Below, piece by piece: positions 7,226-55,533 of a DNA stretch of 64,000 bases (positions within the stretch are counted from its first letter, which is position 1; the number at the start of each line of letters is the position of its first letter). This DNA is from Amoeboaphelidium protococcarum X5 (lineage: Eukaryota > Fungi > Aphelidiomycota): the NCBI GenBank assembly GCA_023515725.1, contig JALDTO010000288.1, positions 124,001 to 188,000 on the forward strand. Reading direction: 5' to 3'. Made by a program: the position numbers and the translations under genes. The notes beneath the pieces are model-generated. The model was not told the DNA's origin and ran no database searches. It saw only the letters and a list, made by a program, of their open reading frames with translations.

Positions 7226-7648
7226 ATGAAGTTGGTGAGATTCTTGATGAAGTTATAGGGCGAGACTGTGACAGTCGAATTAAAGGATGGAAGTTGCGTG
7301 ACTGGGGTCATTCAGAATGTGGACATGTAAATGAATACGCATCTAAAGAATGTTAAACTGACGCCATCAAAGAAAATGCTCAAAACTGCCACTCTACCAC
7401 CGAGTGCCAAAGCTGGCGATGTAGTACCTCTAGAATAAATGTCTGTACGTGGAAACAATGTCCGCTATGTGCTGCTACCTGATGGTCTCCCTCTGGACTC
7501 TTTCCTCATTGATGACCGACCAAAGATCAAGGGTCGTCTCGCCGATGGAGCTGATAGTTCAAAACCGCGAAAATCTGCTAGAACTGGTGGTCAAGGCGCG
7601 TCATCTTCGAGAGGTAGATCGCGTGGCGGAAGAGGCAGAGGAAGATGA
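7226..7648 (+). CDS. SMD1: Small nuclear ribonucleoprotein Sm D1
   Basis: [43 protein letters not shown] and an RG-rich tail. Confidence 0.95.
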
Positions 7649-8061
7649 ATTAGATTGACGCGTGAATGTGCAATAAAATACTTAATTTGACATTGTTCTA
7701 TTCCATCAGTTTATTGTTGTTATTAGTGTACGCGTATTGGCTAGTTTGATGAACGCCGTGTGCTGTAATGTAGATGACGAAACTGAATTATTGAAGGTAA
7801 ATGTACTCCATGCACTGAATTTAAATACGAAATAGCTTTCGCTGGATAGATAATGACAGCGATATCAGAGTGCGTTTGCACTAAACTGTATTCTATGTCT
7901 GCTAGAACGAAAGCTATAAACACATGATACGTGAAATTAAGGAGATGGAATGGTGCCCCTGACTTAGAGGCGAACCCAATAGGAGAAAAAGGCCCAGTAT
8001 ATTATTTTTATCAAATCGCGTGATTATCATTGGCAAACTGAAATCTTATACTTATTGCAAT

Positions 8062-9447
8062 ATGTAGAAAATGCTGACGTATATCATTCTATTGCTAATA
8101 TTGACGATTTAGTCCACGCTGGGTGATGAACCTCCTAGATCAACGATTCCTCTGCAAGTTCCCAAAGGATAGAAGGATGATGCAAGATTTGTGGCGGAGG
8201 CTGGGTGGATCAATGATATCAGATAGAGACTGGAATATTCTGATGAGCATAGATACACTCCACGTAATGTGATATTCACACTGGCATCGCGTATTTTGAA
8301 TGCCCTGAAAATCGTCGGTAGAGTGGATGGTGCAGAGTCGTGTTAGATCAATGTGCACGATGAGAGATTGCTAGCTGAAGTTCCTCTGATCGGTGCATTC
8401 ATCAGCGACATTGGCACCTATGAGTATAAGAAGAGTATTGATAAGTGGACCGTGCTGAAGAAGTATCCAACTGCATACGGCATGGCTATCATTCAGAAGT
8501 CTAATAAGAAGTGTCTGGATAAATTCGCTAAGCATTACACCAAGTACAAGTGGATGTACGGCTTGAATAATTATCTGCAAAAGATCTATCGCAAACGCGC
8601 ATTTAAAGTGGTGCCTCCGTTGAATCGCCAGTTCTATAAGACTATGCTGCGTTAGTTTGTGGAAGTCAATGCACGCAATGTTCAAGAGGGACGTACGCCT
8701 TGCTTTAAGCACGTCACTGAGACTCACTTTAGTCATGCCGTCGTGTATAACAAGTGCTTCCCCAATGTCTTGCGCACGCCGAGATTGGAAAAATTGGCCA
8801 CGATGTTCGAAGTTCCTGCATCCATAGTTGACCATCCACTGCATGTCTCGGCTCCTCTGGGATCAGGCGCTATAGCGTGGCAGACTGTGGATGATGTTGA
8901 TTAAGAAGCGGTCAAGTTTGCGAAATTGCTCAACTTTCTGGAGATTGCAGGACCATCCGGTACCACTGATATGATATTAAACTTGAGTCATTTGTTCGGG
9001 ATGAACTAACGCGAGCGGGACATGGTGCTTCTGTAATGTCTTTTGTATTTGGTACCTCAACATCACAGCATCATTGAGATTCAGATGGGATTCGATGGAA
9101 ATCCTGCAGTGAAGAGAAGTAAGTCTACGTGTAACGCCATCTTCTTGGGTGATAATGGCCAACCGAACAATGTGGACGGTGACAGCAGTGGAACAAGTGT
9201 ATCATCACGTAGTCCTTCGTTGATATCAGAACTGGAGTTGAAAAGTTCTGTTAGACAATTGGAAGAGTTGTCAATCTTTTGTCTACTGATGCCATTTGAT
9301 GATATAATCCCGGGGCTGTTTAGCGTTACTGATGTCATTAGCCCGTAGAGTATCGCGTAGTACAAAAGTCAAGGACGGATCATGGAACTGAAAAGTAAGA
9401 AGGACTTGGTGAGTAGAGCAAAGCTTTTGATGAAGAGATTAAGCTGA
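8062..9447 (+). CDS. Secreted ~461-aa protein with AGPSGTT...HHSIIE (S-HxxxE) motif; candidate AMPylase-like effector
   Basis: Signal peptide MQKMLTYIILLLILTIQSTLG. Joins track ORFs 8353, 8659 and 9043 in one frame. Ser codon 8956, His 9064, Glu 9076. TGA at 9445-9447. Confidence 0.7.
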
Positions 9448-9569
9448 AGTAGAGGTATAGATTAGAGTTGGATAGATATGAATGAGTCTTAGATGGACTA
9501 GAATTATTAAATAAGTTTTGATATTATCGTTTGTTTTGACTAATCACTTTCACTAGAGACTATAATCGA

Positions 9570-11486
9570 TCAGAGTTGGCTAATAGCCTATTAATGAGCT
9601 TTAACAATCTTCTTATCGCGCTGTACCAGATTAAACCAATTGACACCATTGCATCTTGAATAGCGAACGCCTTGGTTTTGCAGATTATTGGCTATAACCT
9701 CCTGACTGCAGTATTTATGCTTAGGCTCATACAGCCGAGTTATCCAAAAGTCTGAATACCAGTCTTTAATCTACACAACATTAGAGATCTCATAATCATC
9801 AGTTTAAAGTTGTTGTATTAACACTTACCTCGAGAGGGAAGAAGAAGCCAAAAATGTCAAAGTGCCTTCGTGACACCATGGCCTAAGTTAGAAGAGAGCA
9901 TTTCCACTTCTACATACACAAAATCAATTGATGAGAGGTTAAACTTGTACTTTATCGTGAAAAAAATAATGTTACCGCATCGGAAGGACCAGCCACACCG
10001 AGACCTTCATTGAGATCCAATTGAGTCGTAAAATAAGAAGCCCAACCAGCAGTCTCAATCCTAAGATCGTCATTTACTTGGTAGTAGTAGTCAGCACCTT
10101 CCTACATTGACACTAAGAAACCAATGTTCCAAATTAAGGTGAGCCATCCATTGGAACGAGGCATTGGCAGGTAGCGCACTACTAGCGAGTCTTACAACGC
10201 AGAATCGTTGATCATTTAATCGATTGCAGAGGTAACATTCTCATACATTGCAGCATCGGTATCAAATATGCAGTCACCCTTGTCAAAGAGTATATAGACG
10301 ATAAATTTAAATTAGGATGGTTCAGACGGGTCAATAGAGGCCAAGAGTGATGGCATAAAAATACTAATTACAGGAGAGATTTGACCATTGTTACAGCTAG
10401 ACTTTGTTGGAACACCCAAAGCTATAACCTTTCGCCTATCGATATAATCTGCCTTAGAATGTGGCAGCTTAATAAATTTATTTCGAACTAAAGAGCGGGC
10501 GTAAGTGTACATGTAATCGGCTCTAATTTAGATGTTGCAAAAATCTTGACCTTCAGTCTTGAAACCTTCTTGATTTAAATCAGTAATGCTAACAGAATCC
10601 AACTTGGCCATATAATTCGCATTATTATTCCAAGATAGATCATTCAAAGAGCACTCAAGTGTATTGAGACAGGTAATGCGATCATATATTATACGCTTAG
10701 CAAAGGAGGAACGTCTATTAAGTCCCAATACAAGTACAGATGCTTAAGACAACTATTAAGAGGACCACACTATACCGCCAACTTTACTCAAACTTTGTAT
10801 AATTTGGTCGACATAGCTCTTATCAAGTTTTAATGAAAGATCAGCATAGACTACGTTCTCACCATAGCGCGTAAAGAGATACTAAAAGGCCAGCAATCTG
10901 GTATATTGATACCATTGTTACTATTAGTCAGATAACTTGTGTTATTCAATCGCATCATAAAGAACATGATCATCAGTAGAGGCCCATAAGCCAAACTGAC
11001 GCGGTGTCAAGTAATTCACATTAGTCCATAGATTAACTTCTTCAGCTACGCTCTCAGAATTGGACATATCAATAACCATTATCTGCCCAATTTTGGTATT
11101 ATTATTGATTTTATGAAGACTCTACACGTATATAAATTATATAGTACTAGAATTAAAATGGTGTACTTTAATAAACTTACTCCAACAAATTCGCGCAGTT
11201 GCTTCACTTGCGATGCGTTCTGCATAATGGTAAACACGATTAATTGTGATGACTGCCCAGTATGAGATGCGAGACTTTACGTCACAGACTAGGTTGCATA
11301 TCGCTAGGATGAGCTATCATTCCAGCTATTTACTACGCTATTCTCGGTGGTGGTTACCAAGCGCTTCGATATACTAGATGATGGTCTCATACATCGAACT
11401 TGCCCAGCAGAGCGACGATACATGTACAGAGTGTACACCGAGTACAAGACTCCAGCAGTGAGAATTATTGATATGAATCTATTCAT
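9570..11486 (-). CDS. Type II membrane GT-A fold glycosyltransferase, 4 exons (introns 11122-11180, 9910-9975, 9771-9828)
   Basis: N-terminal TM anchor. ADYYYQVNDD, GVAGPSD, LLTQAMVSRRHFDIFGFFFPLEIKDWYSDFWIT. The GT..TGTAG introns give a continuous, motif-consistent protein. Confidence 0.75.
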
Positions 11487-21445: not shown

Positions 21446-23176
21446 TCACATAAGATATCTGACCCAACGATTCAGTCGACTGTAAAAGACATTAATCCAG
21501 CCTTAATTTGTATTATCTTGCCTCGAAATGAACTTTGAACGAACTATAGAACCCGCAAAATAAGCTGTCACCATTTCTGGATCACCTTTAAGTAGATGGC
21601 GCAATTGATCGCCGGGATTAAGCCCATGCCATGTAAATGATACCATTTCCAAGTGAGCGAATGCCTTCTATTTAGCAAACATTTGTACAGAAGATGACCA
21701 GTCAACGTGAAGTAACTGATCGACTTAGGACCATGTTTGAATTACAATTTATAGTCGCTTAACTGGTAATTTTCCAATGTGATTCAAAAATCCTTTAATC
21801 TACCCTATACTCAGTATATCCGGATTTAGAATTATCGCGTAATCTTGCAACAAACGTTAACTTTTTAGTTTACCAACAGCACTGGAGACATGTTTAGAGA
21901 GTTCCGCCACCGAATCAAAAGGTGTTGCATGAGACGTAACGTCAAAATTCAAGTAACCATATAGCTGCAAACTTCTTCCATACAAACGTAATATACGCGC
22001 GCCATGCATTTACCAACTATAAGATCCATATAAAATCTAAACATTCATCTTTGAATCAACAGTTGATATAGCGTCCCAGAAAGCTCCACAATATTCTAAA
22101 TTGCCGTATACACCCTCACTTATGCTAAATGTGTATACCACATCCCGTCGATTCTTGGTGAACTACTGCAAAGAGCTCAGTAACAAGGAGAGAGATTATT
22201 GCAATTACATAGGAGACAGAAGAAGTCCGTCAACAACAATGTCATGAATGTTGACATCAATCTTATCTAGCTCGTGAGGATTAAAACTGGCGCCGAGAGG
22301 ATCAAAGATTATGCTATCTGCAGTATTAATTTAATTCAAACTTTGACCACCTAATGAAACCAAGAGCAAGATGGAGTAGCGCAATGTCAAGTTGCTTTCA
22401 CCTTTGACAGATTCACCTTCATTTTAAGTAGCTGATATTCTATCACGTAACTACTATAGATTGCGCTGACGCACTGTTTAACGCAAAAAGATCCTGGCTA
22501 TTCCATCATCCGACGTAACAATTTCAGCCTTTTCATACGCTTTTATTGCCAGCGTCACTCGAAACGGTAATGCACTCAATTAAGACAGATAATCACTATG
22601 CTACGACAACTAGTGCATTTGAGAGCATGATAAAACAATATTCAAGCTGAAATCTTCAATAACAGACATTTCAGTAATTACCTACAAGACCTTGTCCAAC
22701 TTTGAGAGTAGCTCATATGATAAAATATCAACATCATCGTGCTGATTGTCAAAGTCGACCGTCATTCGGTTGTGTAAAATCAACTCTCTTGCCAGCAGAC
22801 TAGCTTTATTAAAATCGTCATACAAGACCAACGAAGACCTAAATAGCCTGTACATCAGGCTATGGAATCTTTACTGCGTGCACCAACACGACTACTGGGG
22901 CATGAAATTTCGCAACTTGACGGATACCTATTTCAGAGGCATTCCACGTTCACAATACAATCTCACGCGGTTGAAGTACACTTGAGGATCTTCTGTAGAT
23001 TTCCATTCAGGCTTATTACCGTCAAACCAAAATTGGTGAATATTTTCTAAAACAGGCAAAGGAAGATTAGTGATATCCAAGACACCAGTATCGCTCTCAG
23101 TGCATAATACCTATACCATGAGTAAGACGTATAAGGATAACACGCGTGACCAGACGCGTTAACCAGCCATTTTACA
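21446..23176 (-). CDS. Secreted ~576-aa protein with an F-box-like motif directly after the signal peptide
   Basis: Uninterrupted ORF. MQMAGQRVWSRVLSLYVLLMVQVLC then LDITNLPLPVLENIHQFW. Confidence 0.65.
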
Positions 23177-53880: not shown

Positions 53881-55533
53881 TCACTTACTACCAGTTTTTG
53901 GTTTGGAAGCAGCAGGTGCAGCCTTTGCCGGCTTTTGAGGCACAGCTGGAGCTTTTGCAGGAGTCGGAGCTTTTGCTGGAGTAGGAGCCTTTACGGGAAC
54001 TTTTGCTGGAGTAGGAGCTTTGATAGGTGCTGGAGCAGGAGCCTTGATAGGAGCCTAGACGGGAGCTTTGACATCAGCACTTTGGCGAGGCTACTGGGAA
54101 GTGGGCGGCTACTTAATAGCATTGATACCAACGCCTTGTTGTTAAGCGCCAGCATTGGGCACAGTTTCAGGTCTTTGAACGCCGGCAGTGTCCTACTACG
54201 AATTCACTTTGGTTGCAACAGCAGCAGTTTCGGCCGGAGGACTAACACCAGAGGCTACTACAGGCACTGGCGCTGGGGTATTACCTGGTAAATCAGACTA
54301 AACTTTTGCACCATTGGCATCAGCGGAAGGAGCAGAAGGGACAGCCTGTTGTTGCAAATTTGGAGGCAAAGTATCTTCAGCATTTGAATTCTTAGCTTGA
54401 GCTTCCTATCCAGAAGATGGCTCCGGAGTAGAAGTAGATTCAGAGGCCACGGGAGCACCAGGTTGCTGATTAGTTTGAGGACTGGTTCTTTAATTTAATT
54501 CCTACTTTAATTGCTCAGCTCTTGGCTAAATCCATTACTTAATCTCATCACTAGTCCAACCGTCAGCTTCCAGAGCAGCCGCGTCTTTAAGACCAGTAGG
54601 ATTTCCTTGCGCATCGACCTCAAATGCGTCAATCAGAGGTTTGCCGTGCAGACTCGCATCTTTGATATGATCCGAAGTTGTAGGCATCCGTTAAGAAGAA
54701 TCTCCAGCTTAGACCCTATTTCCTTCGGCATTATCACTATCAACACCAGAAGGAGTGACGCCATCTTAAGGGTTGCCAGCACCAACTTGATCAGATGGTG
54801 TAGGAGCTCCATCACCAGCAGCTGGGGCAGGCAATTCTTCTTTAGGAGGAGCGCCAGCAGCAGCAGCACCTTCAGATTACCCAGACTCAGTAGCGCTTGG
54901 TGAGCCTTACGCGTTGGCTGTCTTCTGTCGCTCTTCACCAAGTTCTTAAGCCCTCTGCTTAAGCAATTCGATTTCTTCTGGAGTCCAACTTTTCTGCAAT
55001 TCGGCATCATCTTTCAGACCGATAGGATTACCCTAATCGTCGGTTTCAAACGCATCCAACATGCGCCCTCCATGGTAAATGGAAGCTCGTATATGATTAG
55101 TCACACTGTTGGGAGGGAAGTCAGGAGAAGGTGCTCTTCCGCGAGCATAGGCTTCTTGTTCAGCAACTTCTTGGGGCGACATATTCAGTGCCTCAGCAAC
55201 GCGCTTTCTCCCTGCCTCTGACATCACTTGGCGATCATCAGTCAAGAAACGACTTTGCATAGTACTACGTAGATTTTGCTTATTATACTCTTGCAACAAC
55301 TTTGCATTTTAAGGAGATACACCCTCATTCACCAGATCCTCTTCAGTTTTAATCAAGCCATCGGAATCGTAGTAGTTAGGCTGCATTTGAAACCCTTCAA
55401 GAGCAGATAAATCAGCAGGACCGTCATCAGAAGATTGACGCTTGAATAGGGACTATTGATGTTCGTTAGGACCGTGCAAAGGAACAGACAACACAATAGA
55501 CGCGGATATTAATAGTAGAATAGTAAATTTCAT
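53881..55533 (-). CDS. Secreted protein with a duplicated ~55-aa domain and Pro/Ala/Lys-rich tail
   Basis: Signal peptide MKFTILLLISASIVLS, KR site, two HI...HG..DAFExDxQGNPxGLKD...WT..EI...RA repeats, KAPTPA repeats. TGA at 53881-53883. Confidence 0.82.

Follow-up and report, generated by a model that had tools for sequence, protein, structure and literature searches.

The stretch of Amoeboaphelidium protococcarum X5 DNA analysed here (64,000 nucleotides of contig JALDTO010000288.1; hereafter, the window) carries on its plus strand a gene whose predicted product, P0001, very probably belongs to the MCF1-SHE (S-HxxxE) superfamily of proteins. The gene is a single-exon open reading frame (ORF) at 8062..9447, which encodes 461 amino acids (aa) when read with translation table 6 (TAA/TAG = Gln), starts with ATG at 8062 and ends with TGA at 9445-9447; 11 of its codons are TAA or TAG and are read as Gln. 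Under table 11 the same frame falls into 12 pieces, of which three are 82-103 aa long and fit the three fragments that a preliminary description, made from the letters alone, had joined into one ORF by reading TAR as Gln. That description also placed the gene in a eukaryotic intracellular parasite and expected standard-code annotation to miss it. The former is borne out, as P0001 is 99% identical to a protein of A. protococcarum (4 of 461 residues differ), an organism described as an algal parasite in which UAR is read as Gln (PMC5304391); the latter needs correcting, because this protein, encoded on a 3.25-Mb contig, is already annotated as hypothetical protein MP228_010259 and only the family assignment was lacking.

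An Sm/LSM protein gene lies directly upstream, and further flanking frames read with TAA/TAG as Gln encode, among others, an intact APC3-like TPR protein, a pyruvate-dehydrogenase-kinase-type protein, a poly(A) polymerase and a trehalose synthase. These intact eukaryotic neighbours, together with the A. protococcarum match and a neighbour-like GC content and codon use, make contamination unlikely: the GC content of the gene (0.44) and its TAA/TAG use (11 of 22 Gln codons) are inside the range of 11 neighbouring genes, and its GC content at third codon positions (0.50) is slightly over their range (0.32-0.47).

The gene is transcribed and conserved. The RNA evidence consists of contigs from four runs of a single study, whose run type is unrecorded and which behave like mRNA. 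These contigs jointly tile 8030-9523 without a joint inside the ORF, yet they skip three GT-AG-type introns directly downstream on the minus strand, and one of them ends in poly(A) behind the upstream gene; the ORF can thus be regarded as intronless, as was claimed before. Comparison with another strain gave 30 synonymous and 10 replacement changes (40 of the 46 differences, each scored singly), and the resulting ratio of replacement to synonymous change (pN/pS) of ~0.10 shows that the gene is under purifying selection. No replacement change among these 40 falls within residues 202-431, and codon 198 is exchanged between TAG and CAG, as expected if both codons mean Gln. Two overlapping minus-strand frames (7527-8492 and 8140-8844) were taken as shadows of a one-stop code, the substitutions being synonymous in the plus frame, and were set aside.

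The N-terminus of P0001 combines a basic residue with a core of strong hydrophobicity and, close to Gly21, an end made of small residues, and residues 8-16 form the most hydrophobic nine-residue window of the whole protein (mean hydropathy 3.6). This pattern, and the similar N-terminus of a distant homologue, P0003, point to a likely signal peptide at residues 1-21 (8062..8124) and to likely secretion, in agreement with the preliminary description. The following predicted helical region (residues 41-261; 8182..8844), with conserved Cys214 and Cys232, is common to P0003 only. The MCF1-SHE catalytic hairpin region (residues 262-344; 8845..9093) contains the GPSGTT motif (8950..8967) with the predicted catalytic Ser299 (codon 8956-8958) and the HSIIE motif (9064..9078) with the predicted catalytic His335 and Glu339; these are the residues previously read as EIAGPSGTT, with Ser at 8956, and HHSIIE, with His at 9064 and Glu at 9076, and the Ser-His spacing is 36. 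Past the hairpin, about 55 residues beyond Glu339, a helix is predicted at residues 390-408 (9229..9285) in a low-confidence part of the P0001 model. The sequence [LI][KR]xxVR within it is common to P0001 and P0003, and Lys394, Val397 and Arg398 fit three of the four positions given for the continuous C-terminal amphipathic helix by which Ceg14 binds actin (PMC13439196); we regard this candidate position as a lead only.

As stand-alone evidence, the S-HxxxE motif on which the preliminary description was built is weak, because the bare S-x(29-49)-HxxxE pattern is common, occurring in 9 of 29 window ORFs and in 1619 of 5000 shuffles of P0001. The SG..HxxxE pattern was found in 172 of the 5000 shuffles, and the fuller GPSGT..HSxxE pattern in one of the 29 window ORFs and in none of the shuffles. 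Conservation of the motif in homologues, on which the earlier reading was made to depend, is evident: Ser299, His335 and Glu339 are invariant in alignments A2 and A5, and in A5, whose 27 rows were partly chosen by the same motif, Pro298, Ser299, Gly300 and Thr301 and the His and Glu of HSIIE are invariant in all 27.

Pfam, NCBIfam and PHROGs contain no family for P0001, and word-based homologue searches with single proteins, covering lengths of about 250-800 aa, found only P0002, P0003 and P0005. P0003 is the one full-length distant homologue (431 aa, 28% identity) and has a signal-peptide-like start; the two proteins have five cysteines in common and are identical in the eight residues AGPSGTTD and in a 13-residue block around HSIIE (LVPQHHSIIEIQ). 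When a profile of these two sequences was compared with 1.84 billion proteins, seven distant matches were obtained (E<=0.001), all at the motif region, six of which contain [GA]PSGTT..H[SG]xxE; P0007, a repeat protein without the motif, was dropped. Through tblastn, the profile match P0006 led to nine plasmid records, five from Pseudomonas and four from Streptomyces. The match on Pseudomonas syringae plasmid pDC3000A, the one inspected out of the five, reads AGPSGT..HHSMLE, and its gene lies behind those for a type III chaperone and an ADP-ribosyltransferase; the one Streptomyces match inspected, out of the four, is a giant protein. The record of the pDC3000A gene says hypothetical; we take it to be hopT1-1, a name inferred from the gene cluster, shcO1, hopO1-1 and hopT1-1 being listed together (PMC2663052). 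MCF1-SHE, whose published signature is 'all-alpha; S, T, HSxxE', has HopT1-1 and giant proteins of actinobacteria among its named members (PMC3482391), and the Streptomyces giants are classed as 'MCF1-SHE classical' (PMC13431035 Table S1).

Scans with DNA patterns yielded family-like in-frame ORFs in 31 of 80 stretches (9 of 20 metagenome, 21 of 22 prokaryote and 1 of 38 viral); the remaining 49 were judged to be chance. From 19 of these ORFs (near-duplicates omitted), the Streptomyces domain and the presumed HopT1-1, a hidden Markov model (HMM) of 21 rows was built, in which P0001 scored 39.4 bits versus 5.8 for the best unrelated window ORF (392 sequences); HMM scores for the hairpin region were 39-50 bits. 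When the motif was kept and the rest of P0001 was shuffled, the maximum was 23.1 bits and none of 300 shuffles reached 39.4, which indicates that the helix pattern around the motif adds to the score. Profile-profile comparison by hhalign against a profile with the presumed HopT1-1 and the Streptomyces giant-protein domain gave a probability of 98.4 over residues 262-344 (E 7.5e-15, 79 columns). Searches of PDB sequences with P0001, P0006 and profiles A1, A2 and A6 gave nothing relevant, and neither LnaB nor SidL matched P0001 or these profiles at E<=10. Peptide-pattern locus searches recovered no relative in viral, metagenome or prokaryote contigs, and tblastn found no match for P0001 in phages or for P0003 and P0009 in plasmids. 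In the ESM Atlas, P0003 matched only peptidase M13 clusters (<0.9, low recognition), which were rejected as noise, and P0006 matched nothing.

The fold was approached through a bacterial-type relative, L012, which was folded with 26 rows including the P0001 core and reached a predicted local distance difference test (pLDDT) value of 89.9; Ser299, His335 and Glu339 of P0001 align with Ser273, His309 and Glu313 of this protein. Among 48,161 solved chains, the L012 model ranked Mcf1 first (Z 12.4, root-mean-square deviation (rmsd) 3.2, 212 residues aligned), LnaB second (Z 8.2, rmsd 6.1, 212 aligned) and SidL third (Z 5.2, rmsd 4.4, 138 aligned), followed by entries that we take to be PAP2-type phosphatases. 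Z values of this size can arise among helical bundles; yet the first three places went to precisely those S-HxxxE families that have solved structures. The ranking order mirrors the PAP2 link reported for the MCF1-SHE fold (PMC13431035). With the same model, Foldseek gave no PDB match at E<=0.001, Mcf1 again ranking first (E 0.24). The model also matched six giant-virus proteins with template modelling (TM) scores of 0.45-0.53, one of them at E<=0.001.

On the sequence profiles and the L012 model we consider the family call well supported. Within the family, P0001 is nearer the classical branch of Mcf1/HopT1 type than LnaB, because its nearest relatives are classical MCF1-SHE proteins and the L012 model fits Mcf1 better than LnaB. 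The proposal of a LnaB-family protein therefore stands at the level of the superfamily that holds LnaB, to which both the profile match and the fold ranks point, and not at the level of the branch. Classical MCF1-SHE members named in PMC3482391 and PMC13431035 include Mcf1, FitD, HopT1-1, VopK, the Streptomyces giant toxins and mimivirus L389. With these P0001 shares an all-alpha prediction, the S/T/HSxxE signature, a two-helix hairpin, a similar domain length and a Ser-His spacing of 36, compared with 35 to about 47 among the MCF1-SHE relatives in this analysis. Unlike them, it is a stand-alone product of a eukaryotic nuclear gene (TAA/TAG = Gln) with a likely signal peptide of the endoplasmic reticulum (ER) type, its cysteines are common to P0003 only, and its N-terminal region is unalignable.

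LnaB of Legionella is an actin-activated phosphoryl-AMPylase of clade NM1S-2 that transfers adenosine monophosphate (AMP) to a phosphoryl group (PMC11142304). P0001 resembles it in the S-HxxxE triad, and the L012 family model aligns with it as given above, but the two differ in Ser-His spacing (36 in P0001, 44 in LnaB) and probably in clade. Ceg14/SidL, also from Legionella, is activated by actin, converts adenosine triphosphate (ATP) into AMP plus pyrophosphate and adenylates 3-phosphoglycerate (PMC12092593, PMC13431035, PMC13439196). P0001 resembles it in the triad and, by prediction, in a loop-rich stretch before Ser and a helix ~55 residues past Glu; unlike Ceg14/SidL, P0001 has no N-terminal repeat domain, and no adjoining ankyrin inhibitor gene was seen in its flanks. 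Toxicity of VopK depends on the triad (PMC4619451), and the N-terminal effector domain of Mcf1 is toxic to yeast by a mechanism reported as unknown (PMC10716152). The earlier term AMPylase is retained only in part: the family includes AMP transferases, but AMPylation is one of several family activities, as Ceg14/SidL shows, and LegK4 and Lpg0209 did not adenylate proteins (PMC13431035, PMC13439196).

We tentatively propose, with somewhat less than even confidence, that P0001 is a secreted MCF1-SHE enzyme that cleaves ATP, passes AMP to a host molecule or water and weakens the invaded alga. Given family membership, ATP-using chemistry is likely by analogy with the family's tested members, and, given both, action against the host is likely to about the same degree. 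The signal peptide would route P0001 through the ER, the five cysteines common to P0003 may stabilise it outside the cell, and the amoeboid stage would release it against the host cytoplasm; aphelids are described as intracellular amoebae that engulf host cytoplasm and digest it in a central vacuole (PMC3975115). In line with the model for Ceg14 (PMC13439196), Ser299 and Glu339 would hold His335 in position to attack ATP at its alpha-phosphate, and AMP would pass to a candidate acceptor, be it a protein, a metabolite or water, so that the host algal cell would be weakened.

Several observations weigh against this proposal or limit it. The P0001 model itself (mean pLDDT 43.9, predicted TM score 0.29) is too poor to show a fold or a pocket, its best-supported part being the helices at residues 300-311, 316-330 and 337-344 (pLDDT 60-75), and fold searches with it, uninformative at a pLDDT of ~44, returned no S-HxxxE structure among the matches. 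Only ~80 of the 461 residues align with the MCF1-SHE family; by hhalign, residues 30-261 and 345-461 match the bacterial family with a probability of <=0.3. The upstream GNLRE helix and LSxRE helix motifs of the bacterial rows, which were defined from our own alignment and not from a published definition, are not recognisable in P0001 or P0003, and for this reason we rank P0001 as a variant rather than a plain classical member. There is some circularity in the profile tests, since the query's own motif served to gather the relatives, and masking ten motif residues lowered the HMM score to -2.8 bits, a value that 142 of 300 shuffles equalled or exceeded. As for chemistry, LegK4 and Lpg0209 showed neither actin binding nor protein adenylation in the assays used, and, while AMP transfer is known for LnaB, SidL/Ceg14 and some homologues from LnaB searches, no enzyme activity is tied to a named classical-clade member in the literature covered here. 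Finally, homologue and profile searches found no paralogue of P0001, unlike the situation in many effector families.

The main rival is a feeding enzyme with the same fold and triad, which in the digestive vacuole or in the space inside the host wall would strip phosphate or pyrophosphate from engulfed nucleotides in a PAP2-like role. The likely signal peptide fits a digestive-vacuole enzyme as well as an effector, and the conserved cysteines, the single copy under purifying selection, the digestion of host cytoplasm in a central vacuole (PMC3975115) and the position of the PAP2-type phosphatases next behind the three toxins in the L012 ranking would all suit such a function. The annotated relatives that the searches reached, however, comprise a gene of a type III effector cluster and giant toxin proteins, and the literature covered describes no housekeeping member among the MCF1-SHE clades; we consider a feeding enzyme unlikely. 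Still less probable is a secreted MCF1-SHE toxin that would act not on the alga itself but on bacteria or competing parasites at its surface or inside it. Classical members are described as components of polymorphic toxins of free-living bacteria (PMC3482391), and Bacillota genomes and environmental metagenomes supplied many of the relatives in this analysis, but family scans detected no delivery or binding domain in P0001, and the characterised family members act in eukaryotic cells.

A serine peptidase centre, or other chemistry without ATP, is marginally less probable again. The peptidase centre was the original prediction for MCF1-SHE (PMC3482391) and the clades are reported to be diverse (PMC13431035), but in vitro VopK did not act as a protease (PMC4619451). 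Moreover, both solved relatives LnaB and SidL work with ATP, and the fold has its allies among PAP2 phosphotransferases. We give very little weight to modification of the parasite's own secretory-pathway proteins or cyst wall. FICD modifies BiP in the animal secretory pathway and the ER lumen holds ATP, so that the likely signal peptide and the transcribed, conserved gene would agree with such a role; by inspection of its sequence, however, P0001 has neither a KDEL/HDEL end nor a membrane anchor, and homologue and profile searches revealed no orthologue among named proteins of other eukaryotes. Equally improbable is a convergent motif, or a fragment grafted into an unrelated secreted protein: the confinement of homology to residues 262-344, the effect of motif masking and the uninformative P0001 model would be explained, but not the seven motif residues that are invariant and correctly spaced and come with the expected helix pattern and a glycine upstream, the failure of all 300 motif-kept shuffles to reach the P0001 score, or the identical HSIIE and AGPSGTTD blocks in a homologue of only 28% identity.

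With regard to origin, the distribution of the family is patchy. In whole-genome samples, 2 of 401 genomes gave weak matches in one phylum, neither with the motif, and the 1 of 401 in another was the centre genome itself, which makes the family rare among those prokaryote genomes that were sampled; among eukaryotes, the homologue and profile searches matched no other named protein. This pattern suggests lateral gain from bacteria or giant viruses, and the resemblance of GC content and TAA/TAG use to those of neighbouring genes suggests that the gain was old. In an unrooted tree (27 rows, 88-column core), P0001 joins P0003 at 94/88, unstarred, and the donor is not resolved; the transfer raised in the preliminary description is suggested by the patchy distribution but not demonstrated by the tree. 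A fuller scenario is conceivable, in which an early-branching fungal relative took over an MCF1-SHE toxin from bacteria or giant viruses, redirected it into its own secretory pathway and now employs it against algae, as an effector that either transfers AMP upon activation by the host or drains ATP; we hold this scenario with less confidence than the proposed function itself.

The MCF1-SHE domain family has been known since 2012 and includes a mimivirus protein (PMC3482391). Table S1 of PMC13431035, which samples sequences at random for tree building, contains 86 eukaryotic rows; the 78 covered here, the other eight lying within the haloperoxidase block, include three uncharacterised fungal NM1S-1 members (Apophysomyces, Friedmanniomyces and Cadophora) and neither a classical-clade member nor an aphelid. 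Like P0001, these three are eukaryotic records in an MCF1-SHE clade; they differ in clade and in having no annotated signal peptide, a comparison based on table rows and not on sequences. In full-text searches of a literature that leaves out most subscription journals and, for the LnaB paper, the supplements, no publication came up that deals with P0001 or with an S-HxxxE enzyme from a eukaryote. Other eukaryotes thus already have recorded members of the superfamily; what P0001 seems to add is a secreted variant, in a parasite, that has not been described.

The LnaB paper (PMC11142304) raises the question of whether the S-HxxxE motif is used by eukaryotes, and the P0001 gene, a concrete, conserved, single-copy candidate with a predicted triad, makes this question testable with one protein. 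P0001 would also offer a small stand-alone model of the classical MCF1-SHE branch. Aphelids are parasites of cultivated microalgae, and their effectors were chosen by database similarity in an infection transcriptome paper (PMC8657485); P0001 would add a candidate at the level of mechanism. If the fuller scenario of a domesticated toxin is true, no eukaryotic S-HxxxE enzyme before P0001 would have had a role assigned, P0001 would count as one of the earliest aphelid effectors defined by mechanism, and P0001 and P0003 would form a secreted, disulfide-bearing branch.

Further relatives were noted in the course of the searches. P0004 and P0008 are short motif-bearing proteins with the top core identity to P0001 and P0003 (36-43% over 53-58 columns), P0004 ending in a hydrophobic segment, and may be further eukaryotic members. 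An intact MCF1-SHE domain occurs in open frames of 450-970 codons in 21 Bacillota genomes (L023-L044), mostly Lachnospiraceae-type assemblies; the name 'Lachnospiraceae' is absent from Table S1 of PMC13431035. A 473-kb viral contig encodes a 558-aa MCF1-SHE protein with a basic N-terminus (L082:573-2249).

Elsewhere in the window, the three minus-strand introns downstream of the P0001 gene are short (58-66 bases; 9770-9829, 9909-9976 and 11121-11181) and lie in or near the downstream gene, which implies that the 426-aa frame at 9799-11079 is not the true structure of that gene. Also on the minus strand, a 550-aa protein (53881-55533) with a signal-peptide-like start, an internal two-copy repeat, a Pro/Ala/Lys-rich tail and no Pfam match is a second candidate secreted protein, and a 574-aa protein (21446-23170) likewise has a signal-peptide-like start and no Pfam match. 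In a 642-aa frame on the same strand (833-2761), a stretch containing an E-x-K motif precedes a C-terminal region that weakly matches a kinase (Pfam E 6.7e-5), a layout that we take to resemble the nuclease-plus-kinase arrangement of Crinkler-type effectors.
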